This document shows positions 1-58,719 of a DNA stretch of 64,000 bases, piece by piece. The stretch comes from Puniceicoccaceae bacterium. GTDB lineage: Bacteria; Verrucomicrobiota; Verrucomicrobiia; Opitutales; JAFGAQ01. The notes beneath the pieces were generated by a model. The model did not search any database and was not told the DNA's origin. It saw only the letters and a program-made list of their open reading frames with translations. Numbering within the stretch: the stretch's first letter is position 1; each line of letters begins with the position of its first letter. Where the stretch lies: positions 176,768 through 240,767 of the forward strand of contig JANQOQ010000010.1 of NCBI GenBank assembly GCA_028285755.1. Reading direction: 5' to 3'. The translations under genes were made by a program, and so were the position numbers.

Positions 1-755
1 GTCTCAAAGCTAAAAAAATCTCCTGTTCTGCCACAGCCTGCTTGAATGTCATCAATAATGACTAGTGCATTGATCTCTGAGGCAATTTCAAATAATTGCT
101 CTAACCATGCCTTGTTTGCTTTTCTCACACCTCCTTCACATTGAATGATCTCAAGGATGAATGCTGCAGGCAGATCCTTTGAAGCGGTGATATTATGGAT
201 ATAATTATTCAAACATTTGAGTGATGTTTTCGCCATTTCGGCGGAATGACCAAATGGAATAATTGCCGTATCCTTTAAATCTACACCAGAAGATGCCCTT
301 CTTGATCTAGACGCAGATAGAGAAATTGAGCCTATGGTAGAGCCATGAAAGCATCCTTCGAATGAAACGACATTAGAGCGGCCTGTAAACTTTCTCGCCA
401 GTTTTATTGCAGCCTCAACCGCATTAGTGCCCGTAGGTCCAGTAAACTGGAATTTATATTTATAGCCTCTTGGCTTAAGAATAATAGTATTAAACGCTTC
501 AATGAATTCTTGCTTCACCCTAGTTCCCATATCTAGTGAGTTAACCACTAAACTTTGTTCCAAAAAATCAATTAAGGATTTCGAGAGTAAAGGGTTATTA
601 TGTCCATAATTGAGAGACCCTGCTGCACAAAAAAAATCTAAATATTTATTCTGATCAATGTCATAAATGTATTCATTTTTAGCTACATCAAAAATTGTAG
701 GGAAAACCCGAATATAATTACGAACATTGGATTCAAGTTGTTTAAATGTCTTCAT
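1..755 (-). CDS. Class-III PLP aminotransferase, diaminobutyrate--2-oxoglutarate transaminase-like (5' part only; gene runs off the window start)
   Basis: Not in the ORF track (edge-truncated). Own translation from ATG 755..753: MKTFKQLESNVRNYIRVFPTIFDVAKNEYIYD...LNYGHNNP...FTGPTGTNAVEAAIKLARKFTGR...CFHGST...IIDDIQAGCGRTGDFFSFE. The N-terminal pattern and the D-D-I-Q-x-G-x-GRTG motif are typical of class-III aminotransferases of the EctB/DABA-AT type. The start overlaps the stop of the upstream ORF (TCAT at 752-755). Confidence 0.75.
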   Translation of the reverse strand, partial: MKTFKQLESNVRNYIRVFPTIFDVAKNEYIYDIDQNKYLDFFCAAGSLNYGHNNPLLSKSLIDFLEQSLVVNSLDMGTRVKQEFIEAFNTIILKPRGYKYKFQFTGPTGTNAVEAAIKLARKFTGRSNVVSFEGCFHGSTIGSISLSASRSRRASSGVDLKDTAIIPFGHSAEMAKTSLKCLNNYIHNITASKDLPAAFILEIIQCEGGVRKANKAWLEQLFEIASEINALVIIDDIQAGCGRTGDFFSFE

Positions 756-1732
756 TTAGGCAATGCTCCTTCAATCAGCTTACTAACAATGTGCTCGTGG
801 TTTATATCTTCTTGTAGTAATGCTGACACGTATGATGAACCAATACTTAGATCCGGATGAGTTGAGATTTCAATGCAGTATGTTTCCCCTGTTTGGTCAG
901 AGTGTCGAAAATCTATCCTAGAATAACTCTCTAGACCAAGATCTTCATGTATTTTAATTGCAATATTCGAAACCTTCAAAAAAAGTGATTTTTCAGGAAG
1001 TCTGTATTTGACAGAACCATATAGAACATCTTTTCGTGTGATATAATCATATTTCAGTGCTTTCGAATTTTTTAGTATCTCTACACACCCAACAAAATAA
1101 ATGTCCCGCTTTTTGTCCTTCAATATAGCAACTTTAAGTTCGGTGCCATTAATGAATTCTTCGGCTATAATAGGTTGATTAAAATTTGAGACTAAATACT
1201 CGACTCGTTTATAAAGTCCTTTTTCGGAGAAAAATAGAGATTGCTCGTCAATCCCCAAAGCACCACCTTCCCATGTAGGTTTGATGAAAATTGGGAAATC
1301 TATTTTTAAATTTTTATCTTGGTAATTTATTATTTGTGCAAGTGGAACATTGTATCCCATTCCCCTTAAGATATTATTAGTGTGATACTTATGCCTACAT
1401 AAGGCCATATGATAAGCGCTAGACCCAACAATGGGGATGCTAAGAAATTTGCAAATCATTGGAACCATAGATTTTCGATCTACACCTATAGCTCCCTTAG
1501 ATTTATTAAAAACCACCGAAATTTCGTCTCTTTTTTGATATTCCAACAAAGACTTTGCGCCATCAAGTACTATGCATCTGAAACCTAATTTTCTAATTGC
1601 ACCAACTATGTCATCAATTTCGGATGGAAAAATCACATCTCCGTCATTTTTTTCAGATGTGGAGGAAAAAATTGGATTTTTTGAAATATCGTAGACAACT
1701 GCAACTGTTACTTGATTTTCAGTAATTTCCAT
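752..1732 (-). CDS. ATP-grasp enzyme, D-alanine--D-alanine ligase-like
   Basis: 326 aa with Ddl-like organisation: an N-terminal alpha/beta part (VAVVYD...), a central FPIFIKPTWEGGALGI, and a C-terminal SRIDFR...ETYCIEISTHPDL resembling the xRvDf...EvNtxPG motif of ATP-grasp ligases. There is a 13-nt gap to the integrase and a 4-nt overlap with the aminotransferase. Confidence 0.7.
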   Translation of the reverse strand: MEITENQVTVAVVYDISKNPIFSSTSEKNDGDVIFPSEIDDIVGAIRKLGFRCIVLDGAKSLLEYQKRDEISVVFNKSKGAIGVDRKSMVPMICKFLSIPIVGSSAYHMALCRHKYHTNNILRGMGYNVPLAQIINYQDKNLKIDFPIFIKPTWEGGALGIDEQSLFFSEKGLYKRVEYLVSNFNQPIIAEEFINGTELKVAILKDKKRDIYFVGCVEILKNSKALKYDYITRKDVLYGSVKYRLPEKSLFLKVSNIAIKIHEDLGLESYSRIDFRHSDQTGETYCIEISTHPDLSIGSSYVSALLQEDINHEHIVSKLIEGALPK

Positions 1733-1745
1733 AGATAACTTTCTG

Positions 1746-2723
1746 TTATCCTTTAACTGTCAGCTTAAATCTGGGGTGGTTTGCCAGGATGATGTTGCGT
1801 TGGGTATGTTGACTTACAGAGGCGTAAATGGATGTGGTAGCTATAGAACTATGACCTAAGAACTTTTGTATGACTCGGATGTCGGTTCCCTCATCTAAAA
1901 GTTGGGTCGCTATACTATGTCTAAAAACGTGTGGAGTTATAGATTGTAACCCTACTTGGTGCGTGCAACTTTTTACAATCGCTCTGATTGATTGCTCTGA
2001 GAGTCTATTGTTATCACGATTCAAGAAGATGAAATTCTCAAACTCCAATTTCCAGGATTTCCCATATTGTGATTTTAAAAGTTGCTCAAGTTTTTGAACA
2101 TATTCCTTACCACCACAAATTGGAATAATGCGATCCTTGTTTCCTTTTCCGCTAATGTGAAAACAACCATCACCCAGATTAAGACTTTTTACCTTCAGAT
2201 AGCTTACTTCGCTAACTCTCATTCCAGTATTAAAGAGTGTTTCAATTAAAACCAAATTACGTAGGGCTTTCTTATTAACTGAATCTAAGTATTCTGTTTT
2301 AGAATCTAAGGCATTATTGAGCTTTGATAGCAGTTTTGCTATTTCAGATCGTCCCAAGTGCCGGGGTAATTCGTGGGGAACTTTGATTCGAATATTTATC
2401 CGCTTAGTAGGATTATCAAGAATTATATCCTCTTCCTCCAGATATCCAAAGAATGCTTTTAGAGTAGCCAATTTTCGATTGATGGTTCTTGGCTTTGCTC
2501 CTTTGAAGGATCTCAGGAAATCTCTAAATTCATGTTTACTGACGTGAAGCCAAGTAAGAAGCGAAGTGTTTTTTTCGATGTATCCGCTGAATTGTTTGAG
2601 GTCTTGCTTGTAAGACTTCTGGGTATTTTGGCTGAGCCCCTTATCATATTTACAACTACTAATGAAATCTTCAATCATTGTGGATAGCTGAAGGTTTTTT
2701 TTGCTAAGTTTTTGAGAATGCAT
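1746..2723 (-). CDS. Tyrosine site-specific recombinase/integrase (XerC/D-like family)
   Basis: N-terminal SAM-like core-binding domain (SQNTQKSYKQDLKQF). The C-terminal catalytic domain has TGMRVSEV (Arg), HVFRHSIATQLL (H-x-x-R) and LGHSSIATTSIYASV (His...Tyr nucleophile). Confidence 0.9.
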   Translation of the reverse strand: MHSQKLSKKNLQLSTMIEDFISSCKYDKGLSQNTQKSYKQDLKQFSGYIEKNTSLLTWLHVSKHEFRDFLRSFKGAKPRTINRKLATLKAFFGYLEEEDIILDNPTKRINIRIKVPHELPRHLGRSEIAKLLSKLNNALDSKTEYLDSVNKKALRNLVLIETLFNTGMRVSEVSYLKVKSLNLGDGCFHISGKGNKDRIIPICGGKEYVQKLEQLLKSQYGKSWKLEFENFIFLNRDNNRLSEQSIRAIVKSCTHQVGLQSITPHVFRHSIATQLLDEGTDIRVIQKFLGHSSIATTSIYASVSQHTQRNIILANHPRFKLTVKG

Positions 2724-3150: not shown

Positions 3151-3780
3151 ATGGCCGTCCGCTCCGATACGTTTCCTCAAGTTCAAGCTACTCAATACAG
3201 TAGAATTCGTAGTAAGCTAAAAAATGGCGACGTATTATTGTGCTCCGGTGAAGGTTTGTTTTCAAATATGATACAACAGGCAACTGGTAGTATCTGGAGT
3301 CACGTAGGATTCATTCTACGATTAGATGATGTCGACAGAGTGATGCTACTTGAAAGTGTTGAACCCATTGGTGTTAGAACAATTAGGCTCTCAAAGTATT
3401 TAACTGGTTACGATGAAAAAGGAAAAACCCCCTACAAAGGTGGTTTAGTTATACTGCGCCACAAGGGTTTTGATAATATTGTAGATTCTCAAAAGCTGAA
3501 GGAGCTTATAAGATATGCTGTTGAGTGTTTTGGTCATCCATATGACAAGGACGAAATTGTAAAAATTGCCGCCCGCATTTTGGCGAGTAAAATACCATTC
3601 ACTCAAAAGCAGAAGAGGAAAATTAAACCCGATAAAGAGTTTATTTGTTCTGAGTATGTAGCTAGATGCTACGAAGAAGTTGGTGTCAATGTGCAATGGA
3701 ACAAATTAGGTTTTATTGCTCCCAATGATTTTGTAAAAGATCATAATTTCGAATTAGTAACTGTATTGAAAAGTAAGTAA
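3151..3780 (+). CDS. Permuted papain-like amidase, YiiX/YaeF (C92-like) family
   Basis: GDVLLCSG...SIWSHVGFIL (His first) followed late by FICSEYVARCYEEVG (Cys). The His-before-Cys order matches the circularly permuted NlpC/P60-type YiiX family. No signal peptide is evident. Confidence 0.6.
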   Translation: MAVRSDTFPQVQATQYSRIRSKLKNGDVLLCSGEGLFSNMIQQATGSIWSHVGFILRLDDVDRVMLLESVEPIGVRTIRLSKYLTGYDEKGKTPYKGGLVILRHKGFDNIVDSQKLKELIRYAVECFGHPYDKDEIVKIAARILASKIPFTQKQKRKIKPDKEFICSEYVARCYEEVGVNVQWNKLGFIAPNDFVKDHNFELVTVLKSK

Positions 3781-3828
3781 ATTATCCTCATAAACTATTA
3801 TGGATGTTATTGGTGTTGCTTAAATTAT

Positions 3829-4257
3829 ATGGCATTAACAGATGAAGAGTGGAATAACCTAAATGAAAGATTGCTTCCAGTGCTTAAGGAAATGCAACGC
3901 TCGCGCAGGCCACTTAAAATTGTGATTTTTGTTTTTATGCTAATTTCTCTTTTTTTGATTGTTGCTATAATCTTAAAATACGTTTGGAGACTATACGTAG
4001 ATGTTCCGTTGGATATAGAGACACGAGTAATTTTTTTTGTATTCACATCAATGGTTTTTTCTAGTGCTCTTTTCGTATACTATTTCCTTATGCAAGGTTG
4101 CGATGATGCTATGCAACAATTTCGGTGCTCTATAGCATTATGTCATGAAAAGGGAATGTATGAAAGTCTGCCTTTGTTGTCCTGTTATATGAAGGCTTCT
4201 GAGACAGCATTGAATGTGCTGAAAAATGTTAACCCAAGAGCAAATCCGGATGAATAA
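3829..4257 (+). CDS. Small membrane protein (about 2 TM helices), function unknown
   Basis: Hydrophobic stretches IVIFVFMLISLFLIVAIIL and VIFFVFTSMVFSSALFVYYFL. It is co-directional with, and overlaps, the next ORF. I recognise no motif. Confidence 0.4.
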   Translation: MALTDEEWNNLNERLLPVLKEMQRSRRPLKIVIFVFMLISLFLIVAIILKYVWRLYVDVPLDIETRVIFFVFTSMVFSSALFVYYFLMQGCDDAMQQFRCSIALCHEKGMYESLPLLSCYMKASETALNVLKNVNPRANPDE

Positions 4258-5770
4258 CCCTATTGAATTGGAAAGTGAGAATTTGCTTTATATAAGAAAA
4301 AGAACTTTTTTTCGGAGATGGTTTACTTGGTTTATTGGTTTATCTTGGATATTAGGCGGTTTTTTTATAATTATTTATTTGAAAACCATTCAAGAAAAGT
4401 TGCAGGCTGATATTTTGGAAACTACCATTTTATTAAGTAATATAAGGAAAGATCATGAAGTGCTACGTAAATTTGTTGATTCTTCATTGAAAACAACAGG
4501 CGACGAAATTGAACATTTTTCTAATAAACTTGTAGATGTTGAGGTGGGTGCAAATGAGTTAGTTAGTACTGTGAGGGTAGATGTAGAGGCTATGAGTGTG
4601 AAGCTTCGAACAATGCAGGATGATTTCGGAGCTTTAGAGGAAGATCGCAAAAAAACTATTGGGTTGCTTCTTAAAACTTTAGACAGCATCTCATTAAAAT
4701 TGGAGGCCTTTGAAGAAGAATTTACTAATTCAATAAAGAATATTGAGGGTTTGGCTGATAATTTACGTTCGACAACAAGCGATATTTTGAGCTCGAATAA
4801 TGAGGAGCTTAATGAACTTTTGAATCGAGGTATAAATCTGATGAGGGTTGATGAAAAAAATTATCAAGCTGCATATAATATGTTTGAAAGTGCCCTTGGT
4901 TTAGCTAAGACGGATCAGCAAAGAATTAGAGTATTAACAGAGATGGCTATTAGTCAGATTAGTAGCCAGAAATTTTTGGATGCAATTAGGCTGCTTAAAG
5001 AAGCTTATAAGTTAGATAATACTGATGGTTTTATTGATTTTTTGCTAGGAGAAAGTTATTTTCTTTATGGTAAACAATCAGGGAATCCGCTTAGATATAA
5101 TGAAGCTATAAGGCACTTTAATAGAGCAATTAGGAATAATTATAAAATTCCTTCCCTGTACTATAAGCTAGGTGAAATCTATTCATCAGAGCTAAATAAA
5201 AACCTTGCTGCTGTTGGAGTTTATAGCGAGGCTATAGAATTATACCCGAAAAATTTGGAATTAATCCTGAAGAGGGCGGAGTCAAATTATAAGATCAATA
5301 GATTGAGGATGTCTATGACAGACTTATCGGTTTTATTGGAGCAGAATTATAAGCCCGAGATAAGTTGTTATTTGGTGGCTGATATAACACTAATTTTAAG
5401 AGAGCTAGAAGGTTATGACATTAATGAATCTCTTGCCTATTATGAAAAATCACTAAAAGCCTTAGAAGATATTAAAAATAACGATGAGGCATCCATGATA
5501 CTTACTAATCGCATATTGTCGCGATTATCTTTGATACGATATATTAAAAAAGAATATGATGAATCAATTATGAGTACTGATTTGATTGATCTGAATTTGA
5601 ACAGTAGTTCTATAGCGTGGTTATCAATGGCCTTATCTTATAGAGTGAAATCCGATAAGGTTAGTTTTAATCAGGCTTTTTCGACTTGGTTAGAGCTTAG
5701 AAATAGTGATGATGAAGAATTCATAAAGAGGGTTTTGGGAGATTCTTTTACTGAATTAGATTATAATTGA
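4226..5770 (+). CDS. Membrane-anchored coiled-coil + TPR-repeat protein
   Basis: N-terminal TM helix (FTWFIGLSWILGGFFIIIYL), a long charged heptad-like segment, then TPR-like repeats (AYNMFESALGLAK, AIRHFNRAIRNN, AVGVYSEAIELYPKN, AYYEKSLKAL). ATG 4250 (8-nt overlap with the preceding stop) is an alternative start. Confidence 0.6.
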   Translation: MLTQEQIRMNNPIELESENLLYIRKRTFFRRWFTWFIGLSWILGGFFIIIYLKTIQEKLQADILETTILLSNIRKDHEVLRKFVDSSLKTTGDEIEHFSNKLVDVEVGANELVSTVRVDVEAMSVKLRTMQDDFGALEEDRKKTIGLLLKTLDSISLKLEAFEEEFTNSIKNIEGLADNLRSTTSDILSSNNEELNELLNRGINLMRVDEKNYQAAYNMFESALGLAKTDQQRIRVLTEMAISQISSQKFLDAIRLLKEAYKLDNTDGFIDFLLGESYFLYGKQSGNPLRYNEAIRHFNRAIRNNYKIPSLYYKLGEIYSSELNKNLAAVGVYSEAIELYPKNLELILKRAESNYKINRLRMSMTDLSVLLEQNYKPEISCYLVADITLILRELEGYDINESLAYYEKSLKALEDIKNNDEASMILTNRILSRLSLIRYIKKEYDESIMSTDLIDLNLNSSSIAWLSMALSYRVKSDKVSFNQAFSTWLELRNSDDEEFIKRVLGDSFTELDYN

Positions 5771-5818
5771 TTATATTACCAAAATATTGTCGTTTTGGAT
5801 CCCTGAAAATGCATCTTA

Positions 5819-5856
5819 TTGCATTTGAGAGTAAAGAGTGATTGGCTAAAATAAGC
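5819..5856 (+). repeat. Copy A of a ~36-nt intergenic motif beginning TTGCATTTGAGAG and containing GATTGGCT
   Basis: A 13-nt exact match and about 30 of 36 positions (hand alignment, no gaps) with 12730-12766. A weaker third copy lies at 12501-12533. Confidence 0.55.
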
Positions 5857-6221
5857 ACTTTGATTGCTTTGTTTGAGTAATCATCCTCCTTTTAGAATTT
5901 TTAATTCTCCTCTTAGCAAGATGTTTCAAGTCTTTTAAAGACGAAAAAGCACGAAGCAATGACATCACAGGCTAATCATGTTTTTATCATAAAACATCTT
6001 CGGGCTAGATTTGAGTAACATCTGAGCAATTTCCAAAATGCTAAATCTGATCTATGGAAAACCATTATTTTTTCCAAATCAAATGATTATCAGTATTGCT
6101 TTTGATGATTTTCAATAATTTTCTTGTATGATATCATCTGTTTGGTAATAACAACTTAATTAATTAGAATATTAGTTCTTTGTATCATTAATATATTTTC
6201 CTTAATATCCCGCTTATCAAG

Positions 6222-7769
6222 ATGTTATCAAATCACCGAGATGATATCCCAAATTTATCGGATGCAGAAGCTCTATCCTTTTTGTATCAAATTGCTGGTG
6301 TAGGCTTAATTGTATGGAACCTAAAACAAGAGTCTTTGTCCATTAGTCCTAATATCTGGGACTTATTCGGTTTTAGAGCAGATCCGGAGGAATATCATGA
6401 TGTAAACTTTTGGCAGGGTATTATCCATGTGGACGATTGGACAAACGTTAATCAGGCGATCAGTGATATAAAATTGAGGAAGACTTTATCGAAAGAGATA
6501 GTCTTTCGAATTAAGAAATCAGAGGATGACTTTTTATGGATTCTAGCACGAGTTCATAATGTTGAATACAACCAAAATACGACATTCAAAATAGTCGCCA
6601 GTCTAATTGAAGTTGACAGACTTAATAGCGATCATGTGGAGGCAAAATTACATTGGGATAGATATAGAAATCTTATAAATTCGTCACCAATCGGAGTTTT
6701 TGTAACATTAAGAGAGAACCCCAAAACTATTATTTATACTAATGACACATTAGCTGAAATCCTTGGAGTAGATGATATAGAAAACGAAGACTCCAAGATA
6801 TTGGAAAAGCGGTATATTCTAAGAGATCACGATTTTACTCAATTTATTTTAGAAACAGACAAAAAAAGAATGTTAGCACTTCTAAATGATAAATACCTCA
6901 ATGATACAAGTGTAAAGGAACTTAAAATGATTACTCAAGATTCTAAAATTTTGGATGTTGAGGTGAAAATAATAGTTTCGGATTGGGAAGAAAAGGAGGC
7001 AATTTATTTCTTTATTCAAGACGTTACTCAAAGAAAGCTAGAGCGGGATCAATTAGCGATGGCAAATGAGGATCTCGAGAGATTTACATACTCTGTTTCG
7101 CATGATCTTAAAACACCATTAACGACTATTCGTAGCTTTTTGGGAGAACTTCAAAAAGAATCTCGAGAGCGTAATTCAGAGCTATTTATAGAAGATCTAA
7201 ATCGGATTACTAGGGCAGCAGGTCGCCTAGAGAAATTAGTTGCTGGTCTATTAGAACTTTCAAGAATTGGTAGATTTCACACAGAAAAAGAGACTGTATC
7301 ACTTGAGAATGTAGTATCTAAGCAACTAGAAAGTTTAAGTGAAATGGTGAAGAATTCTAATGCGGCCATTATAGTGGGAAAGCTACCTACAATTAAGGCT
7401 GTAAGAGTTAGAATGCATCAATTAATGCAAAATCTAATTCAAAATGCCGTGAAATTTATGGGCGATGAAAAAAAGCCAACTGTTGAGATCGGGTCCATTA
7501 AGAAAAACGATATGTACATCGTTTTTGTGAGAGATAATGGTATCGGGATAGAAGATAATCACAAAGAAAGAATTTTCGAAGTGTTTAGTCGGTTAAACCC
7601 TAAAATTGATGGTACTGGTGTTGGACTTGCTGAAGCAAAAAGAATAGTGGAAACACACGATGCTAATTTATGGGTTGAGGAAAGTCCCCCTAGAAGCTGG
7701 AACCCCAAAGGAAAAGGTTCCACTTTCTGTATATCATTTCCCGAAAGCTCGATTATAAATTGGAGATAA
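6222..7769 (+). CDS. Cytoplasmic PAS-domain sensor histidine kinase
   Basis: No TM segment. There are two PAS-like regions, H-box FTYSVSHDLKTPL, N-box LMQNLIQNAVKF, G1 DNGIGI and G2 GTGVGLA. Confidence 0.9.
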   Translation: MLSNHRDDIPNLSDAEALSFLYQIAGVGLIVWNLKQESLSISPNIWDLFGFRADPEEYHDVNFWQGIIHVDDWTNVNQAISDIKLRKTLSKEIVFRIKKSEDDFLWILARVHNVEYNQNTTFKIVASLIEVDRLNSDHVEAKLHWDRYRNLINSSPIGVFVTLRENPKTIIYTNDTLAEILGVDDIENEDSKILEKRYILRDHDFTQFILETDKKRMLALLNDKYLNDTSVKELKMITQDSKILDVEVKIIVSDWEEKEAIYFFIQDVTQRKLERDQLAMANEDLERFTYSVSHDLKTPLTTIRSFLGELQKESRERNSELFIEDLNRITRAAGRLEKLVAGLLELSRIGRFHTEKETVSLENVVSKQLESLSEMVKNSNAAIIVGKLPTIKAVRVRMHQLMQNLIQNAVKFMGDEKKPTVEIGSIKKNDMYIVFVRDNGIGIEDNHKERIFEVFSRLNPKIDGTGVGLAEAKRIVETHDANLWVEESPPRSWNPKGKGSTFCISFPESSIINWR

Positions 7770-7772
7770 TTT

Positions 7773-8243
7773 ATGAACAACATTAATATAGAAGAATTCA
7801 TTGTGTTACTGGTCGAAGATGAAGCAGATCATCAAGAAATGATTAGAAGGAATCTTTCCTTGCCAAATGATCAGCAACTTAAAATTGTAGATGATGGTGA
7901 GGATGCATTATCGTATTTATTTCGTGAAGGTGACTATGCTAACCCTGAGATTTCACCGACACCTTCTTTAATCTTACTTGATATTAATTTGATTCGAGTA
8001 AACGGCACTGAAGTATTAAAGATCCTGAAGTGCTCTGATGAGGCTAAGGCATTAGACCTTCATAAAATACCCGTGGTTATTGTGACTACTTCCTCTACGG
8101 ATAAGGATAAAATTGAGGCCTATGATAACTATGTAAACAGTTACTTATTAAAACCAGGGGAAGCTGAAGATTGGAAGAAATTAGTAAAAGAAATTCAGCA
8201 GTATTGGATGGGCTTTAATTTGTCCACAAGCCATAATGTTTGA
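7773..8243 (+). CDS. Stand-alone response-regulator receiver (CheY/Rcp1-like), no output domain
   Basis: 156 aa: LLVEDEADH (acidic pocket), LILLDINL (phospho-acceptor Asp), VVIVTTSS, SYLLKP (Lys). It starts 3 nt after the kinase stop. Confidence 0.9.
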   Translation: MNNINIEEFIVLLVEDEADHQEMIRRNLSLPNDQQLKIVDDGEDALSYLFREGDYANPEISPTPSLILLDINLIRVNGTEVLKILKCSDEAKALDLHKIPVVIVTTSSTDKDKIEAYDNYVNSYLLKPGEAEDWKKLVKEIQQYWMGFNLSTSHNV

Positions 8244-9850
8244 TGAATAAACGTAAAGCTAGTTTTGATAAGTGTATTCTTATTGTAGAAGATGATCAGG
8301 ATCATATAGAGGTTATTAGAAGATCCTTCAATACATCACTCAATAAGTATGATTTAAAGTGTTTTTCCACTATCCATGAAGCCCAAAGATGGTTAGAAAA
8401 AAACACGCCTAACTTAGCTATCATCGATTGGAAATTTGAATCTGGGGGTTCTGGTACGGACTTGTTGCCTGGTTATGGGAAAAAGCCTACCTATCCTGTC
8501 ATTGTTATGACAAGCTATGGGAGTGAAGAGCTTGTCGTTGATGTCTTAAAAAAGGGTGCTATAGACTTTATTGTAAAAAGGGCTGAAAGTTTAAGGAATA
8601 TGCGACGCACAGCTGAAAGAGCTATGCGTGAATGGGACCAAAAAGAGAATGTATTATTGGATGAAGAGAGGCTGAAAAGAGCATCAAGATTAGCAGAACT
8701 AGGTTCATTGGCGGGAAGCATAGCACACGAATTAAAAAATTTGATCGGTGCAGTCCAAAACTATGGGGAAATTATCCGAGATGATATTCGCTCTGAAGTC
8801 ATTACTATAAGGACGAATGAGAATATTGATAAACTTCTAAACTGCGTAGATAGCAGCTTAGAAATTATCAGTAAAATACGCAATTACAGTCAACAATTAG
8901 ATTCCCAGTTAGTCGTTTTTGATATTGGTGAAAAAATTCAACAGAGAATCGATTTACTTAAGCCGATATTTCCAAAAAATGTAAATATTGACTACGTAGA
9001 CAAACGGACCGATTCAAGAAGGTTGTATTTTGAATCTAACCCAGATGATTTCCAGTCAATCATAATGAACTTGGTTACCAATGCTCGGGAAGCGATGCCT
9101 GAGCGTGGTGGAGATATTAATATTGAGCTTGAAACGAGACAGGTTTCAGATGGCACTGAAGTTCTAATTAACAATCAAAACCATTGGTTAAACCCAGGCT
9201 ACTATCATTTAATTACAGTAGCTGACACTGGGAAAGGTATGAGCAAAGACACTTTAGATCTAATATTTGAACCGTTCTTTACTCAAAATAAAAAACATGG
9301 AACGGGCCTTGGACTTCCCACGGTAAAAAACTTTGTAAGCCAAAGGGAAGGTATGGTGTGGGCAGAAAGCCAGTATAATAAAGGATCGAAATTCTTTATT
9401 ATGCTTCCTTGTTCAGAAAAACGTCCCGATGAAAATGTACATCCAGAGCTACCAATAGAACTCAAAGGAAACGGCCAGAGTATTTTACTAATTGATGATC
9501 AGCAAAGTTATTTGGATAGCACTAAACAAAGTCTGGAGGCACTAGGATACAGAGTTACAGTATCAGACAATAGCGTAAAATTACTAAATCAGCTCAAGCG
9601 ACAGTATGCAGATAACAAATTACCTTATGACTTGTTAATTACCGATCAATTGATGCCAGAATTAAAAGGATACGATTTATACTTGGAGATCAAGAAGTTA
9701 TATCCGGAATTACCCGCAATTTTAATGACGGGATACGGCGAAATCATGGATGAATATAGGGCCCGCAGGGCAGGATTCAAAGATTTCTGGGAAAAGGGCG
9801 CAGGTAGGAAAGCAATGGCAGAAAGTCTCCACGATATCTTTTCGAAATAG
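8240..9850 (+). CDS. Hybrid REC - HisKA - HATPase - REC histidine kinase
   Basis: N-terminal receiver (ILIVEDDQDH, LAIIDWKF, VIVMTSYG, DFIVK), H-box GSIAHELKNLIG, N-box NLVTNAREAM, DTGKGM, GTGLGLP, and a C-terminal receiver (ILLIDDQQ, DLLITDQLMPELKG, AILMTGYG). The likely true start is ATG 8243, overlapping the previous TGA by 1 nt (TGATG). Confidence 0.9.
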   Translation: MMNKRKASFDKCILIVEDDQDHIEVIRRSFNTSLNKYDLKCFSTIHEAQRWLEKNTPNLAIIDWKFESGGSGTDLLPGYGKKPTYPVIVMTSYGSEELVVDVLKKGAIDFIVKRAESLRNMRRTAERAMREWDQKENVLLDEERLKRASRLAELGSLAGSIAHELKNLIGAVQNYGEIIRDDIRSEVITIRTNENIDKLLNCVDSSLEIISKIRNYSQQLDSQLVVFDIGEKIQQRIDLLKPIFPKNVNIDYVDKRTDSRRLYFESNPDDFQSIIMNLVTNAREAMPERGGDINIELETRQVSDGTEVLINNQNHWLNPGYYHLITVADTGKGMSKDTLDLIFEPFFTQNKKHGTGLGLPTVKNFVSQREGMVWAESQYNKGSKFFIMLPCSEKRPDENVHPELPIELKGNGQSILLIDDQQSYLDSTKQSLEALGYRVTVSDNSVKLLNQLKRQYADNKLPYDLLITDQLMPELKGYDLYLEIKKLYPELPAILMTGYGEIMDEYRARRAGFKDFWEKGAGRKAMAESLHDIFSK

Positions 9851-9857
9851 AATACTT

Positions 9858-11195
9858 ATGACTGAAGAACCTCTAAAGGTTGTAATCGCTGATAATAACG
9901 AAGTTTATTTAGATTCACTTGTTTGCCGCATTAATCAGCGTTTTCCGGGTATTAGCTTGTTCACAGAAAAAGGCGAAGATAGGCGGCAATTAATGCACCT
10001 TCTTGAGCAAGAATCAGTATCACTTCTGGTTACAGACAGGGATAAACCCTATGGGGCTCAGGGGGAAATCAATCTCAGGGCATATAAAACAATTAATCCG
10101 AATATACAAATTGCATTTCACAGCTCAAACATACCAAACAATTTAACCCAAAACCTTAGACCGGGAATAGTTGATTATCTTGTTTCCAAAGAGAACCCAG
10201 AAATCATAGAATCAATTATAGAATCTCTCACGTTAAATCGAAATTTTGAGAATATAATGCTCAATCGGCGTACTGCGTCTAGTTCCTTCGCATTAGCTCA
10301 AGCAATCAAATTTATAAATGATAAAACAAATTTAATGAGGGGTCCCGATAACCCGTCCGGAATTATTGTTGGTGTAGGCATAAGCAATATCCAATCAGAT
10401 AACTTATACATACTTGTTGTAAGTAATGAAGATGTCACAAAATTAAGTTCTTCAGATTTATTCCCACCTGACTTTAATGACTTAAGAGTTGAATTTATTG
10501 CAGTTGGAGTTCCTAAAGCTGCTACTACACCTTTCTCTTGTTCAGGCGGCTCCAGATTATGTCGACATGATGATCCCGAATTTGGTGCTGTCAGTTGCTT
10601 AGTAGAAAAAAAAGGAATAAAATATTTGCTTGGAACGTCACATACGATGGCAGGTTCATCTGGTGCCCAAGTAGGAGATATATTATGTTATTGTAAAATT
10701 GATAGTAATTTAGTTTGTAGTGAGAAAATAGATTGTGCGGCATTATCATACTATGAGAACATATATGAAGGTAATTCTAGTAATAAATGTGATGCTGCAC
10801 TAGCGTTACCCTTCGAAGGTGCTAACATACTGGCAGGAATTAAGAATGTTAAAGCACTTAAACCTAACCTTGGTGATCCCGAGAAAGGTATGAAACTCAC
10901 CATATCAAGCTCAAAAACAAATGAGAAATTAATGGGTGAAATAGATTTAGTTGCTACAAATCTAGCCCCTATAAAGTATAAAAACAAGTGGATAGGTCCA
11001 TTTAGTGATGTTATGTTAGTAAACGGGATCAATGGCCCCATAGGTAGGGGCGGTGATTCAGGAAGTATAGGAATAGATAATGACGGCAACCCGGTAGGAT
11101 TATTTTTTGCAGGTTCGGAAGAACTGTGCGTTGGTTACATGTTCCCCCTTAAGCGAATCTTTAGAGATTTAGAAATTGACCGAATAATAGTTTAA
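9858..11195 (+). CDS. Receiver (REC) domain fused to a chymotrypsin-fold (trypsin-like, S1-type) serine protease
   Basis: Start taken at ATG 9858, 7 nt after the hybrid-kinase stop; the ORF-track start at 9750 lies inside the previous gene. REC-like N-terminus: VVIADNN, SLLVTDRDKP (Asp codon 10035-10037), AFHSS, YLVSKENP. The C-terminal half has the catalytic triad in H-D-S order: LLGTSHTMAG (His codon 10641-10643), KCDAALALP (Asp codon 10791-10793), GRGGDSGSIG (Ser codon 11058-11060). No signal peptide. Confidence 0.75.
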   Translation: MTEEPLKVVIADNNEVYLDSLVCRINQRFPGISLFTEKGEDRRQLMHLLEQESVSLLVTDRDKPYGAQGEINLRAYKTINPNIQIAFHSSNIPNNLTQNLRPGIVDYLVSKENPEIIESIIESLTLNRNFENIMLNRRTASSSFALAQAIKFINDKTNLMRGPDNPSGIIVGVGISNIQSDNLYILVVSNEDVTKLSSSDLFPPDFNDLRVEFIAVGVPKAATTPFSCSGGSRLCRHDDPEFGAVSCLVEKKGIKYLLGTSHTMAGSSGAQVGDILCYCKIDSNLVCSEKIDCAALSYYENIYEGNSSNKCDAALALPFEGANILAGIKNVKALKPNLGDPEKGMKLTISSSKTNEKLMGEIDLVATNLAPIKYKNKWIGPFSDVMLVNGINGPIGRGGDSGSIGIDNDGNPVGLFFAGSEELCVGYMFPLKRIFRDLEIDRIIV

Positions 11196-11219
11196 CATAT
11201 TATAAGGAAGTAGGATACA

Positions 11220-11498
11220 ATGCCACAATTTGATGATAATCACCTAAAAGCACTAAATCTCATGTTAGAATATGGTGATGTGGACGGGTTTGAAGGGTAT
11301 GCAATCAATGAAGTTGATGGTGAAAAGGTTTTAATCTTTCTAATTTCTTCTAAGGATTCGCCTGCTTACGTAAAAATATTGGAAGATAGCCAAGCAGGTA
11401 AATTCGGGGATATCCTTTTAGATTTCAGAATAGTTGGGAATACTACTGCATTTAAAACTCAACGAGTTGCAAGTCATTACAGAACACTCTCTCTTTAA
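11220..11498 (+). CDS. Small (92-aa) protein resembling the linker domain of the upstream REC-protease
   Basis: It starts 24 nt after the protease stop and is co-directional. Hand alignment: GYAINEVDGEKVLIFLISSKD ... KFGDILLDFRIVG versus the protease's GVGISNIQSDNLYILVVSNED ... DFNDLRVEFIAVG (10356-10517). Confidence 0.5.
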   Translation: MPQFDDNHLKALNLMLEYGDVDGFEGYAINEVDGEKVLIFLISSKDSPAYVKILEDSQAGKFGDILLDFRIVGNTTAFKTQRVASHYRTLSL

Positions 11499-11508
11499 TC
11501 TTTTTGTT

Positions 11509-11527
11509 GCTACACATTCGTTGTAGC
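11509..11527. terminator. Short hairpin between convergent genes (possible bidirectional terminator)
   Basis: GCTACA-CATTCGT-TGTAGC (6-bp stem) lies between the stop at 11498 (+) and the stop at 11551 (-), with flanking T/A runs. It is weak. Confidence 0.35.
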
Positions 11528-11550: not shown

Positions 11551-12036
11551 TTATTCTAATAACTTCTTTAGAGTCACTTTGCTACTGTTCATTGCTTGTA
11601 CATCCGGCTTAGGTAACGCACTAGATGCGGACATTCTAAATAGTGCCGTCGAACTAGCTCCTGCAGCGATACATGTATAAAAGCTAATACTCTTTTGCGA
11701 ATCAAAATATATAGCTAAAGACGATACAATTCCAATTGTAATCAATACAACAACAAGTGACCAAAATTTTAATGACTTAAACTGAGCTTTAAAATCTTGT
11801 TCAGTAAGCACTCTCCACTTATTTCGTTGCTTTAAAATTTCAGATAATACGGAGCCTATAGCACCTAAAAGGGCTACTACCCACGGGTTTAGCACCAAAC
11901 TAGTTTTTTCATTTTGATTCACTAATTCACTTTCTGATACATTTCCATGTGATGCGTAAATGAAGAAGAAAATTGATATGAATATAGAGGTATATAGCAA
12001 TTTTATGGTTTTATCAGCATTAGGATTCATATCCAA
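11551..12036 (-). CDS. Small polytopic membrane protein (about 4 TM), function unknown
   Basis: Hydrophobic segments LLYTSIFISIFFFIYA, PWVVALLGAIGSVLSEIL, FWSLVVVLITIGIVSSLAIYF and FYTCIAAGASSTALF. It converges on the protease operon. Confidence 0.45.
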   Translation of the reverse strand: MDMNPNADKTIKLLYTSIFISIFFFIYASHGNVSESELVNQNEKTSLVLNPWVVALLGAIGSVLSEILKQRNKWRVLTEQDFKAQFKSLKFWSLVVVLITIGIVSSLAIYFDSQKSISFYTCIAAGASSTALFRMSASSALPKPDVQAMNSSKVTLKKLLE

Positions 12037-56010: not shown

Positions 56011-56087
56011 CCGGAGTAATGGTCGGGATGACTGGATTCGAACCAGCGACTTCTACGTCCCGAACGTAGCGCTCTGCCAGGCTGAGC
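56011..56087 (-). tRNA. tRNA-Pro (anticodon CGG), CCA encoded
   Basis: Hand-folded cloverleaf from the reverse complement: acceptor CGGGATG/CATCCCG, D stem GCTC/GAGC, anticodon stem CTACG/CGTAG with loop TTCGGGA, variable AAGTC, T arm GCTGG-TTCGAAT-CCAGT, discriminator A + CCA. Confidence 0.9.
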
Positions 56088-56337
56088 TACATCCCGATTG
56101 ACCAAAAGAACAAGCTACCAGAGATTGTCGTTGGATTTCAATACTATTGTAACTTAGGAGCCGGTTGGATTAGGCGACTTTGTAGGAATTTAATCATTGT
56201 TAATTTCTAGGGGCAGAAATTGAACCCATACGGGTTTTTTAATTAAGCCATCGATTTTAATTGAATCCCCCAAAAAGCCACAATAAGGGATAGCTATCTC
56301 TTATTTCCACAACGCCTTATCTTCAATCCCTCGAAGC

Positions 56338-58719
56338 ATGTATAAGCAATTTCAGATTCTGTTTCTATTCGTAAGCTGCCTATTAATTAACAGCATATCT
56401 AATGCTTCAATAACTCTCAAATATAAAACGGCGAATGGTTACATCCCGATCACAGCCGTAAATGATGGGAAGCTAATTGCTGAGGTAAATGGTAAGCCAA
56501 ATCCGGTGAACCCCAGTAACTTATTCTCATTAGAAGCTAGCATGGATGATCTTTTAGATTATGCCATACATCCTCCATTTTACAGTATCACCCGTAATAC
56601 GAAGGATCCTGATTCGGCGAATCGAAATTTTATGCACAGTTTCAATATTCATGGGTCAGGACTAAAATTAATGACCTCACCTGCTTTTAAAGGGACTATA
56701 ATTAGTAAATCGTGGGATGTAGAGGACGAGCAGAATACTAAGATAGTTGTTGCATGGTTTCACCCCGATGAATTGAGCCACCCGGCTGAGCTTTCACATA
56801 TTAACTACAAATATTTGACGGATAAGAACAGCGCTGCTCGTTTTAAACCCTCGCATGCTGAAAAACGGAGGTTGCTTCCTGCCATATTGCTATTTGGAGG
56901 TAATGGGAAATTTGTTAAACCAAAAGAGACTAAGGATCGTGCCCTGGAGAAGGCTATTATTAGTTCTCTTATTCGGGATGATTCAGCTGCCCTCCAAGCA
57001 CTGATCACAGAGAATAAGCGTATTGTTAGATCTGAATTTTTTGAAGGGGATTTATTGCACTGGGCTGTTGGTTACAAAAGTCACAAATGTATGGAAGTAC
57101 TTCTTGCGAATGATGCCCGGCTTAATGGGAAATATTCAGATCACTTTACTCCGTTGATGCTAGCCTCTGGAAATAGTGATACCAAATCAGTTGCAATGCT
57201 GCTAAAGGCGGGTGCTAACATTAAGTCAGCGGATTCTCTTGGCAATACACCTCTGCATTCTGCCGCTCATATTGGTAATAATGAGATAGTTAAGGCACTC
57301 CTGGATGCAGGAGCTTCTATAGACAAGGAGAATATTATTAAGTGGAGTCCTGTATATATGGCGGCTGCCCAGGGGCAAAATTCTACCGTTAAGCTATTAC
57401 TGGAAAATGGTTCGAAGTTCAAACTGGATAAGGACCAGAAGCAATTCCTGCTCTTTCGTGCATTGCGCAAAAATAGTCTGGATGAGCTAGAATTCATTCT
57501 TTCAAGGGGAGCTAAAGCCGATTTGGCTTCAAGAAACCATTACCCAATTTTCGAGGCAGCCCGATGGAGTAGCGGGCAGTTGATTGATGTATTGGTGGAA
57601 AATGGAGCGGATGTAAATCGCACTAAAAAGGGTGGTATGACACCGGTCATGATTGCTGCGCTTCACAATTATGATGGCTTGCTTGCACTATTGAAACATG
57701 GTGCGGATCCGAATGCGATAACGGAAGCAGGTGCAACTGCACTGCACCTGGCGATTACTGAGAATAACTTGGATGCTACCCGATTTCTGCTTCAAAATGG
57801 GGCTGATCCCAATTTAGAGAATCCCGATGGTGTGAATTTACTCTGGTGGGCAACCATGGTGGGTGATCGCATGAGTCTTAATGAGCTAATCAGTGCAGGT
57901 GCCGTTTGCAAAATGACCCCTGAAACGGCAATGCCCCTAATGGACTATGCGTTCAGGCATAATATACCCGAAATAGTCGAGATTACGATCGCTCAGTGTT
58001 TGGAGCCGGATTTTAGATTTTATGATGCATTTCCCAATACGTGGGTTGCGGAAAGGTATGGAGCTGAGCTCATAGGGAATTACCTGAATGATATCACTAA
58101 ATCCAATGATAGCATGGGAGTTCCCGAATTTAAAACGTATCGGGATGTTCGAAATCACATAAAGGTAAAGAATCAGGTTTCACCTAAATACCCGCGCGAT
58201 TTACAAAAAGAGTACGGTGAGTTTCTGGCTGTATTAGATGCTATCATAGATGTGGATGGTAGCGTGCGTTTTCCTGTTATAATCGAGAATCCGGCCAATG
58301 AAATGAGTGAAAACATCGTCAATGCATTGAGTCGTTGGCAATTCGAACCCATTGTGATGGATGGGAAACCTGTCCGTGTACGTCTTGAAATCCCTATACA
58401 AATGGTTCCAAGTCTTGAAGATGAACGGGTCTATGATATTGAGGCTGCTGACCAGAAGCCAAGGCCCTTACGAATTATTGAGCCGGTTTATCCACCTGGA
58501 ATGAAGAGAAAAAAAATCGAGGGTGAAGTGATGCTTGAGTTTGTGGTTACAGTAGAGGGTAATGTTGACAATGTTGAAGTGGTTAGTGCCACTCATCGAG
58601 AATTCGTGATGCATGCGGTTGATGCGATGAGGCGATGGAAGTTTTCGCCGGGTTATGTAGATGGAGATGCCGTCAACGTACTTGCCAGAGTACCGCTTCG
58701 CTTCAGTATTCAAAAATGA
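56338..58719 (+). CDS. Secreted ankyrin-repeat protein with two tandem C-terminal TonB-C-like domains
   Basis: Signal peptide. There are about 8-9 ankyrin repeats (GNTPLHSAAHIGNNEIVKALLDAGASI, GMTPVMIAALHNYDGLLALLKHGADPN, GATALHLAITENNLDATRFLLQNGADPN). Two TonB-C-like units follow: PKYPRDLQKEYGEFLAVLDAIIDVDGSV...WQFEP (58174-58410) and PVYPPGMKRKKIEGEVMLEFVVTVEGNV...WKFSPG (58462-58716). Confidence 0.8.
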   Translation: MYKQFQILFLFVSCLLINSISNASITLKYKTANGYIPITAVNDGKLIAEVNGKPNPVNPSNLFSLEASMDDLLDYAIHPPFYSITRNTKDPDSANRNFMHSFNIHGSGLKLMTSPAFKGTIISKSWDVEDEQNTKIVVAWFHPDELSHPAELSHINYKYLTDKNSAARFKPSHAEKRRLLPAILLFGGNGKFVKPKETKDRALEKAIISSLIRDDSAALQALITENKRIVRSEFFEGDLLHWAVGYKSHKCMEVLLANDARLNGKYSDHFTPLMLASGNSDTKSVAMLLKAGANIKSADSLGNTPLHSAAHIGNNEIVKALLDAGASIDKENIIKWSPVYMAAAQGQNSTVKLLLENGSKFKLDKDQKQFLLFRALRKNSLDELEFILSRGAKADLASRNHYPIFEAARWSSGQLIDVLVENGADVNRTKKGGMTPVMIAALHNYDGLLALLKHGADPNAITEAGATALHLAITENNLDATRFLLQNGADPNLENPDGVNLLWWATMVGDRMSLNELISAGAVCKMTPETAMPLMDYAFRHNIPEIVEITIAQCLEPDFRFYDAFPNTWVAERYGAELIGNYLNDITKSNDSMGVPEFKTYRDVRNHIKVKNQVSPKYPRDLQKEYGEFLAVLDAIIDVDGSVRFPVIIENPANEMSENIVNALSRWQFEPIVMDGKPVRVRLEIPIQMVPSLEDERVYDIEAADQKPRPLRIIEPVYPPGMKRKKIEGEVMLEFVVTVEGNVDNVEVVSATHREFVMHAVDAMRRWKFSPGYVDGDAVNVLARVPLRFSIQK

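Follow-up and report, generated by a model that had tools for sequence, protein, structure and literature searches.

Described systems closest to the operon

In RssB and CpdR, two-component signalling results in intracellular protein degradation and not in transcription, and the receiver serves as an adaptor that delivers substrates to ClpXP. In CheB, an N-terminal receiver is connected by a linker to a hydrolase with a Ser/His/Asp triad, which is gated by the receiver. Detocs, an anti-phage system, consists of DtcA (a kinase with a TPR sensor), DtcB (a buffer made of a receiver only), and DtcC (a receiver joined to an effector), and it is detected as three genes with at most one intruder; its described effectors are PNP and, rarely, REase, TOPRIM, and a transmembrane hydrolase. 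A five-gene operon with features of all of these systems is described here, located in a 64,000-nt stretch of DNA (hereafter the window) of a Puniceicoccaceae bacterium (assembly GCA_028285755.1, contig JANQOQ010000010.1, positions 176,768 to 240,767). The five open reading frames (ORFs) are designated ORF1-ORF5. The centrepiece of the operon is a singleton fusion (ORF4) of an atypical receiver with a protease of the NAL1 (NARROW LEAF 1) type, which is accompanied by a partner of the protease family (ORF5) and ends an otherwise ordinary cytoplasmic kinase cassette. An earlier interpretation made without database searches (the sequence-only reading) had proposed a cytoplasmic phosphorelay with Detocs-like logic, in which the output is a receiver-fused trypsin-like protease. 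Response regulators with enzymatic outputs and NAL1-like proteases are both known kinds that are extended here, but no equivalent of the fusion itself was found: as that reading had surmised, no response regulator with a receiver-protease output, trypsin-like or other, is described in the literature searched.

Rice NAL1 (PDB entries 8PMM, 8PMG, and 7Y77; Pfam families NAL1_N and Nal1_C) is an intracellular protein in which, as in ORF4, a small N-domain precedes a chymotrypsin-fold domain that bears a His-Asp-Ser triad, and it is both the best sequence-profile match and the best Foldseek match of ORF4, at an identity of about 15%. The N-domain (ABD) of rice NAL1 forms a trimer interface with the neighbouring protease domain, and the enzyme is active only as a D3 hexamer composed of two stacked trimers (PMC12012508). 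The segment N-terminal to the ABD makes the two-fold contacts, and stacking orders the loop of the catalytic His and aligns the triad (PMC12012508). Unlike ORF4, rice NAL1 has its own N-terminal hexamer-contact segment and no adjacent small partner gene has been described for it; the cage and the binding of ATP are known from the plant protein.

The other systems are more distant. CheB shares with ORF4 the order of N-terminal receiver, linker, and triad hydrolase, but its hydrolase has an alpha/beta methylesterase fold and acts on glutamyl methyl esters of chemoreceptors rather than on peptide bonds, and its receiver is canonical. RssB and CpdR have the same kind of output as that considered here, whereas their receivers are not fused to a protease. 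The catalytic domain of alpha-lytic protease is the second-best structural match of ORF4, and the pro region of this enzyme, a small N-terminal domain that can also work in trans to catalyse folding and to inhibit tightly, is a parallel to the N-domain and to the free partner described below; alpha-lytic protease is, however, secreted and its pro region is cleaved off, and the match to the prodomain-like protein 4HLB is weak and has no counterpart at the sequence level. Pepco and EACC1 are small latent effectors that are paired with trypsin-like proteases in defence systems, and Pepco, a protease-associated pore former, is a stable beta-barrel oligomer that is activated when its C-terminal tail is removed. 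As at the present locus, these are small unannotated proteins encoded beside a trypsin-like protease, and ORF5 resembles Pepco in its N-terminal helix, its beta core, and its tail at the C-terminus, which is unstructured. In contrast, the proteases of the present family are not fused to STAND or Avs sensors, and the partner here is homologous to the protease N-domain and is mostly tail-less.

The protease module of ORF4

Full-length ORF4 showed no usable match in Pfam (even at an E-value of 10), NCBIfam, or the PDB sequences. The protein itself lies below the Pfam gathering threshold, and its family membership rests on homologues that were found with phmmer and match the NAL1 Pfam families. 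An exhaustive phmmer search with ORF4 of 1.84 billion representative proteins (E-value up to 1e-3) yielded 416 homologues, all of which aligned to residues about 145-445 and the best of which is 36% identical; most are stand-alone proteins of 300-350 aa. Pfam matches among the homologues (n = 57) were to Nal1_C (36/57), Trypsin_2 (35/57), and NAL1_N (20/57). A profile built from the homologues matches the rice NAL1 structures at an E-value of 6.9e-17, followed by streptogrisins and alpha-lytic protease, and in the PDB profile alignment the N-domain of ORF4 corresponds to NAL1 residues 79-205. A hidden Markov model (HMM) of the N-domain, also built from the homologues, matches ORF4 at 2.9e-12.

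Structure prediction gave the same picture. The AlphaFold2 (AF2) model, computed with an alignment of 57 homologues, has a predicted local distance difference test score (pLDDT) of mostly 80-96 over the protease domain (residues 240-445) and of about 71-89 over the N-domain, which is modelled as a helix (139-156), two strands (170-175 and 182-187), a second helix (190-197), and a third strand (209-215). The top 34 Foldseek matches of the ORF4 model are all NAL1 entries, beginning at an E-value of 1.5e-13, and alpha-lytic protease and SGPB come next. Across the alignment of 57 sequences, H262 and S401 do not vary, and the conservation of D312 is at least 90%. These residues lie in the order His-Asp-Ser in the motifs GTSHT, CDAALAL, and GGDSGS, respectively, and the oxyanion-hole motif GGDSGS is kept. 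Profile search, AF2, and Foldseek thus agree in identifying the C-terminal 300 aa of ORF4 as a chymotrypsin-fold protease of the NAL1 type, with an intact triad that is predicted to be catalytic. The sequence-only reading had quoted the three motifs and the codons of D60 and S401 correctly (Table 1), and its prediction of a chymotrypsin fold agrees with both AF2 and Foldseek; its label 'trypsin-like' stands for the fold but missed the specific NAL1 type. Likewise, the output that it had proposed, a cytoplasmic serine protease with a predicted intact triad behind a receiver-like domain, is what the present analysis points to.

The whole of ORF4 therefore appears to be composed of a divergent receiver-like domain, a helical linker, and a complete NAL1-type module (N-domain and chymotrypsin-fold domain). 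The receiver-like domain and the linker take the place of the N-terminal segment that makes the hexamer contacts in NAL1.

The small partner family and ORF5

The sequence-only reading had listed ORF5 as a 92-aa ORF only. It is a real ORF of the operon, but it is not an orphan, and its relation to the protease family had been missed. Downstream of the closest protease homologue (P0003), a 72-aa ORF begins after 9 nt; the gene for P0005, from phage-like contigs, overlaps with a 66-aa ORF that comes after it, and a truncated ORF of this kind comes after P0004. These small ORFs share a motif that consists of a helix followed by GVxGVGIG, V.V, P, G.P.V, and G.I.A. An alignment of five protease sequences was used to gather 80 genomic and 30 viral loci, and a small ORF on the same strand was found to adjoin the protease in 58/114 loci (40 downstream and 18 upstream). 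When all neighbours were clustered all against all, the partner was the sole broadly conserved one (49 loci, with a second cluster of 4, in each case with the partner on the strand of the protease); behind it came clusters of 7 and 6 loci that consist of generic receivers and kinases. The partners, of 60-95 aa, have been called as genes and carry only the name 'hypothetical protein', and the loci with protease and partner span many phyla, phage contigs, and one B. cereus plasmid. Examples among the family loci (L002-L117) and beyond are L002:1196-1414, L004:8933-9133, L039:6873-7097, and L121:3658-3888.

A comparison of the partner family with the protease N-domain by hhalign gave a probability of 93.4% and an E-value of 2.4e-7, with partner columns 23-79 corresponding to protease positions 43-108. 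At the level of sequence profiles, the partner is thus a free-standing copy of the protease's own N-domain. The partner profile matched nothing in PDB, and none of the 19 partner sequences compared (ORF5 included) matched a Pfam family at E-values up to 1. An identification of ORF5 with Pepco/Trypco was rejected on the latter result, the Trypco models being presumably part of that Pfam set.

ORF5 is the top match of the partner HMM among the 394 ORFs of the window (E-value 0.063) and aligns with the partners from end to end. Against a profile of 63 partners from which it was excluded, ORF5 obtained an hhalign score of 23.3 (E-value 4.4e-4), and the maximum for 100 composition-preserving shuffles was 14.9. 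In the AF2 model of ORF5, residues 11-70 have a pLDDT of 84-92 and form an alpha-beta-beta-alpha-beta-beta arrangement, and the tail (residues 78-92) is disordered; the order of elements is shared with the N-domain in the ORF4 model. Foldseek returned weak matches for this model, including a KH-like domain (E-value 0.011) and, at rank 48, the 'alpha-lytic protease prodomain-like protein' 4HLB (E-value 0.15, TM-score 0.41). By profile comparison and model, ORF5 belongs to the partner family as a divergent member that occupies the canonical position.

In 34/60 partners, the C-terminus lies one residue past a conserved Ala (G-x-[IFV]-x-A-x-COOH). Such a fixed end suggests, by analogy with the pro region of alpha-lytic protease in the active site of that enzyme, that the C-terminus of the partner is functionally positioned. 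ORF5 departs from the family in this respect: it reads GNTTAF and continues for another 13 residues that AF2 models as disordered.

The receiver-like N-terminus of ORF4

When the N-terminus of ORF4 was compared alone with Pfam, Response_reg was matched at an E-value of 0.041 (14.5 bits vs a cut-off of 30.2), the match spanning residues 8-118 and profile positions 1-107 of 111. An independent HMM of 195 receiver (REC) domains from hybrid-kinase homologues was scanned over the window ORFs and placed ORF4 third of the 394 (E-value 0.0099), after only ORF3 and ORF2; the next ORF followed at an E-value of 2.9. By hhalign, residues 3-117 match the receiver profile with a probability of 88.5% (E-value 2.7e-6). 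Three of the five active-site positions are kept, namely D12 as the first acidic residue, D60 as the phospho-acceptor, and S89 at the Thr/Ser position. The statement of the sequence-only reading that a receiver is fused to the protease is thus supported by the phospho-acceptor Asp and by hhalign but weakened by the Pfam score and the two missing catalytic residues; only profile-profile comparison sustains the receiver call, and the domain is atypical. With 2/5 of the catalytic residues missing, it is a pseudo-receiver or atypical receiver as defined by Bourret et al.

The fusion is a singleton in every collection searched. The N-terminal 146 aa of ORF4 found no homologue in a word-index homology search even at an E-value of 10, and with ORF4 as the query no relative was found in genome contigs, metagenome contigs, phages, or plasmids. 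None of the 87 protease family members that were scanned carries a receiver, and the other homologues listed are too short for one.

The kinases and canonical receivers

Pfam confirmed the kinase and receiver architectures that had been read for ORF1-ORF3, and the H-boxes are present as they had been quoted. ORF1 matches HATPase_c (3e-22), HisKA (8.9e-14), PAS_3 (residues 40-121), and PAS_8/PAS_9 (residues 147-270), and its H-box is FTYSVSHDLKTPL. ORF2 matches Response_reg (9.1e-14) and has all five receiver active-site residues in the alignment. ORF3 matches Response_reg (1.9e-33, in two stretches), HATPase_c (1.4e-19), and HisKA (6.6e-5). The three receivers of the operon outside ORF4, i.e. 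ORF2 and both receivers of ORF3, are canonical at the active site.

The best homologues of ORF3 are merely 28-31% identical. One relative with the same architecture (REC, histidine kinase, REC) is flanked by a REC-PAS kinase in a cassette that ends in a receiver-sigma-54 activator; behind a second come a PAS kinase and a stand-alone receiver, and HSP20 and PdxJ genes adjoin it. Stand-alone receivers are common beside PAS kinases. To judge from these relatives, ORF1-ORF3 resemble ordinary multi-kinase cassettes.

No Hpt domain was found in the operon with Pfam, so that receiver-to-receiver transfer is not provided for and the arrangement would be a two-tier kinase cascade. A true His-Asp-His-Asp phosphorelay was rejected for the same reason, and 'phosphorelay' in the sequence-only reading was a misnomer.

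Distribution of the NAL1-like protease family

Members of the protease family were found in 30 IMG/VR contigs, one phage-like contig, and plasmids, and one homologue is fused to a TIR domain. In Clostridium novyi plasmid pCN2 (L120, NZ_CP029460.1 48621-59460), at least 6 paralogous genes for NAL1-like proteases of about 310 aa form a tandem array without small partners, and plasmids of C. novyi and C. botulinum contain up to 24 matching places per record. Behind some partner-less proteases stands the gene for a conserved acidic protein (about 300 aa) that looks like a coiled coil (L027:6970-7896, L057:1271-2182, L058:1632-2558, and L059:6881-7789) and that could be an alternative partner. A NAL1-like 'putative serine protease' with 29.5% identity to P0006 is encoded by Alphaspiravirus yamagawaense (HE681887.1 10559-11446), a virus of Aeropyrum pernix, and the family thus reaches archaeal viruses.

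In two related Anaerolineae loci, L041:3298-3660(-) and L050:7090-7452(-), the protease, with its partner upstream, is closely followed by opposite-strand genes for a stand-alone receiver and a histidine kinase. These loci are the only other hint of a link between the protease and two-component signalling, and the association may be due to chance.

Operon layout and genomic context

The features of the operon and its surroundings are listed in Table 1. As had been read from the sequence before, the five ORFs are co-directional and tightly packed: ORF1 and ORF2 are separated by TAA, 3 nt, and ATG; ORF2 and ORF3 overlap by 1 nt in TGATG; ORF3 and ORF4 are separated by TAG, 7 nt, and ATG; and ORF4 and ORF5 are separated by TAA, 24 nt containing AGGAAG/AGGA, and ATG. 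A longer ORF4 frame from 9750 would overlap ORF3 by 101 nt, and the public gene call is the 445-aa form. In Kyte-Doolittle profiles (19-residue windows), the maximum over the five proteins is 1.32 and none reaches 1.6, the neighbouring membrane proteins scoring 1.9-3.5. All five products are thus predicted to lack transmembrane segments and to be wholly cytoplasmic. Pfam and further family searches found no DNA-binding domain or other transcription-factor output in any of the five. Both points agree with the sequence-only reading.

The AT-rich region upstream of ORF1 contains no ORF of at least 60 aa and is the probable promoter region of the operon. It contains several sigma-70-like matches (6109-6170), but such matches are no more numerous in the scanned stretch than in shuffled sequences. 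Downstream, the hairpin that had been thought to close the operon has a folding energy of -7.2 kcal/mol (z = -1.09), 29/200 shuffles fold equally well, no T-run follows, and the terminator scan did not call it. It was rejected as a terminator, its stability being at chance level and a T-run being absent.

Table 1. Coordinates of the operon, of the predicted domains and sites of ORF4, and of other features (window positions)
Feature	Position	Strand	Description
ORF1	6222-7769	+	Predicted cytoplasmic sensor histidine kinase, PAS-PAS-HisKA-HATPase_c, 515 aa
ORF2	7773-8243	+	Canonical receiver standing alone, 156 aa
ORF3	8243-9850	+	REC-HisKA-HATPase_c-REC hybrid kinase, 535 aa; in-frame TTG at 8240
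ORF4	9858-11195	+	Receiver-like domain and NAL1-type protease (predicted), 445 aa
ORF5	11220-11498	+	92 aa, divergent small partner (predicted)
Divergent receiver-like domain	9858-10250	+	ORF4 residues 1 to about 131; candidate phospho-acceptor D60 at 10035-10037
NAL1-type N-domain (ABD equivalent)	10272-10523	+	ORF4 residues about 139-222; helix and beta (predicted)
Chymotrypsin-fold serine protease domain	10545-11195	+	ORF4 residues about 230-445 (predicted)
Triad codons	10641-10643; 10791-10793; 11058-11060	+	H262; D312; S401 (predicted)
Intergenic region 5' of ORF1	5771-6221	+	451 nt, AT-rich; probable promoter region
Hairpin	11509-11527	+	6 bp, weak; between convergent ORF5 and 11551-12036(-)
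Tyrosine recombinase	1746-2723	-	Low-GC island
Ddl-like ATP-grasp enzyme	752-1732	-	Low-GC island
Class-III aminotransferase	3-755	-	Low-GC island

Judged from base composition, the operon sits on a horizontally acquired genomic island. The GC content is 31-39% from position 1 to about 13100 vs 45-52% in the backbone, where genes for TonB-dependent receptors, a GH9 enzyme, and a fucosidase are found. This agrees with the AT-rich island with a recombinase that had been noted earlier, the recombinase being of the tyrosine type. The low-GC island extends past the left end of the window, so that its left boundary lies outside, and no tRNA gene is present at its right edge.

A second tight gene set on the island (3151-5770) encodes a YiiX-like permuted papain (Peptidase_C92), a 142-aa protein with two transmembrane segments, and a 514-aa protein with transmembrane, coiled-coil, and TPR regions; none of the three genes has a PADLOC match. 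The 514-aa protein (4226-5770), encoded upstream of the operon, is not a kinase, and the start of its gene overlaps the preceding gene by 32 nt. Convergent on ORF5 is the gene for a 161-aa protein with three hydrophobic segments (11551-12036(-)), which has family matches at noise level only. Elsewhere in the window, a 793-aa protein of unusual architecture, with many ankyrin repeats and a C-terminal TonB_C domain, is encoded at 56338-58719(+), and a tRNA-Pro gene (56020-56096(-)) lies just upstream of it.

Proposed mechanism and alternative readings

The preferred reading, which we hold with about even confidence, is that the operon is a horizontally acquired cytoplasmic signalling operon whose output is regulated, signal-gated intracellular proteolysis. 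The tight co-directional packing of the genes, with likely translational coupling at TGATG, counts in its favour. In the proposed mechanism, the PAS-PAS kinase ORF1 would sense an intracellular cue, e.g. a small ligand, the redox state, or light, and would signal to ORF2 and/or to the N-terminal receiver of ORF3. From the histidine of ORF3, the signal would go to the C-terminal receiver of ORF3 itself and/or to the terminal protein ORF4. Phosphorylation of D60, or docking of a kinase, would drive the two-fold pairing of receivers in ORF4; pairing across the two-fold axes would stack the protease trimers and thereby switch the protease on against its presumed substrates, i.e. the CheB principle would operate in a cage protease. 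ORF5 would bind the protease and either mimic the trimer interface as a decoy or serve as a chaperone or product-like inhibitor, much as the alpha-lytic protease pro region does, and would thereby set the threshold of activation. The idea of a product-like inhibitor fits the fixed C-terminus of most partners.

Several observations weigh against this reading. In the receiver-like domain, N13 is found in place of the second acidic residue and S110 in the Lys column, next to K111, so that phosphotransfer to ORF4 is uncertain and the domain may, as a pseudo-receiver, not accept phosphate. The AF2 model is uninformative on a (beta-alpha)5 fold: the alignment has no coverage of this domain, and over the N-terminus the pLDDT is therefore only 40-60 and the secondary structure unreliable. 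The fusion being a singleton, conservation cannot argue for its function. The sequence-only reading had suggested looking for a conserved linkage of the protease homologues to kinase and receiver genes, but such genes lie within 6 kb of NAL1-like proteases in only 10/116 loci, which was judged to be about background, and the family as a whole has no link to two-component signalling. The hhalign probability of the relation between ORF5 and the partners (34%) is weak in absolute terms, and the oligomer switch and the role assigned to ORF5 are pure inference.

Among the alternatives, the one that survives best, although we consider it somewhat improbable, is that the N-terminal domain of ORF4 is a true pseudo-receiver that is never phosphorylated. 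The protease and its partner would then be a cassette that landed 3' of an unrelated kinase cassette within the island, the domain would serve only for oligomerization, docking, or ligand binding, and the target of the kinases would be encoded elsewhere, unlinked. In its favour, two of the five catalytic residues are missing in an operon whose other three receivers are canonical. According to the literature, about 6% of bacterial receivers are pseudo-receivers, and kinase-independent receivers have been reported in conflict systems. In addition, the pair of protease and partner is autonomous elsewhere, and the C-terminal receiver of ORF3 itself could be the real phosphoryl sink. However, the domain retains the phospho-acceptor Asp and the first acidic residue and has a Ser at the position of the Thr; ORF4 follows ORF3 at a distance of only 7 nt and the operon contains no other output domain; and all but two of the 20 atypical response regulators in the pseudo-receiver paper are orphans, which ORF4 is not.

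It is unlikely, in our estimation, that the operon is a Detocs-like abortive-infection system against phages, in which the kinases would sense infection, ORF2 would buffer stray phosphate, and the phosphorylated receiver would unleash a toxic protease. ORF5 would then be an antitoxin-like inhibitor or, as in the case of Pepco and EACC1, a latent effector freed by cleavage of its C-terminal tail. The layout of a kinase, a receiver-only protein, and a receiver joined to an enzymatic effector, all cytoplasmic and without a DNA-binding output, matches the description of Detocs. The location on a low-GC island with a tyrosine recombinase, the presence of the protease family in viral contigs, a phage-like contig, and plasmids, and the single TIR fusion would suit a defence function, and trypsin-like proteases with small adjacent proteins are a recognized theme in defence. 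The protease and its partner also behave as a self-contained two-gene cassette, and the disordered 13-residue tail of ORF5 extends beyond the end of most partners. On the other hand, the sensor of ORF1 is PAS-PAS, without a TPR domain, whereas that of DtcA is TPR; there are five genes here and three in Detocs, the additional ones being the hybrid kinase ORF3 and ORF5; and the described Detocs effectors do not include a protease, while ORF4 is a protease with a degenerate receiver. PADLOC (PADLOC-DB 2.0.0, whose set of Detocs models could not be confirmed) gave no match for the five proteins or the genes flanking the operon upstream, save trivial receiver-level noise on ORF3, and noise only for 57 members of the protease family; ORF2, a stand-alone canonical receiver and at most a candidate counterpart of DtcB, matches no PADLOC model, and receivers of its kind are common beside PAS kinases. 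Moreover, no known defence gene was found among the island genes scanned, the closest kinase relatives lie in housekeeping-type cassettes, no partner matches any Pfam family and hence none a Trypco or Pepco model, and most partners have no cleavable tail. As the fusion is a singleton, its enrichment in defence islands cannot be tested. Strict membership in Detocs was rejected on account of the PAS sensor, the five genes, and the lack of a sequence-level match, and the kinship with Detocs that the sequence-only reading had proposed is not supported. Nothing found shows the operon to be an anti-phage system, and the defence reading is possible but unsupported.

A broader form of this idea appears quite unlikely. 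The operon would be a two-component-gated system of cell suicide or anti-phage defence, in which the cascade phosphorylates the degenerate receiver and thereby yields an active NAL1-type cage, with ORF5 as an antitoxin or a tail-released effector; by extension, the pair of protease and N-domain mimic would be a new toxin/antitoxin-like or conflict module. Very improbable, finally, is an evolutionary dead end, i.e. a recent fusion by chance, without selected function, on a decaying island: the fusion stands alone in all collections searched, its receiver motifs are degenerate, and its protease domain is so unusually divergent that full-length ORF4 matches no Pfam model, but all five frames are unbroken and lie close together, the triad and GGDSGS are preserved, AF2 models the protease domain and ORF5 with high confidence, and the partner gene is retained in the canonical position.

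Implications for the NAL1-like protease family

The broader result is independent of the operon and consists in a widespread, unannotated two-gene module composed of a NAL1-like protease and a free-standing copy of its N-domain, whose role as an inhibitor, chaperone, antitoxin, or substrate is open to direct testing. NAL1-type proteases matter for rice yield, and their bacterial relatives are, to our knowledge, uncharacterized. If the receiver truly gates the protease in ORF4, the protein would represent a response regulator with direct proteolysis, by a self-compartmentalizing protease of the NAL1 type, as its output, and the operon would provide a natural on/off handle for the study of how oligomerization activates NAL1-type proteases.

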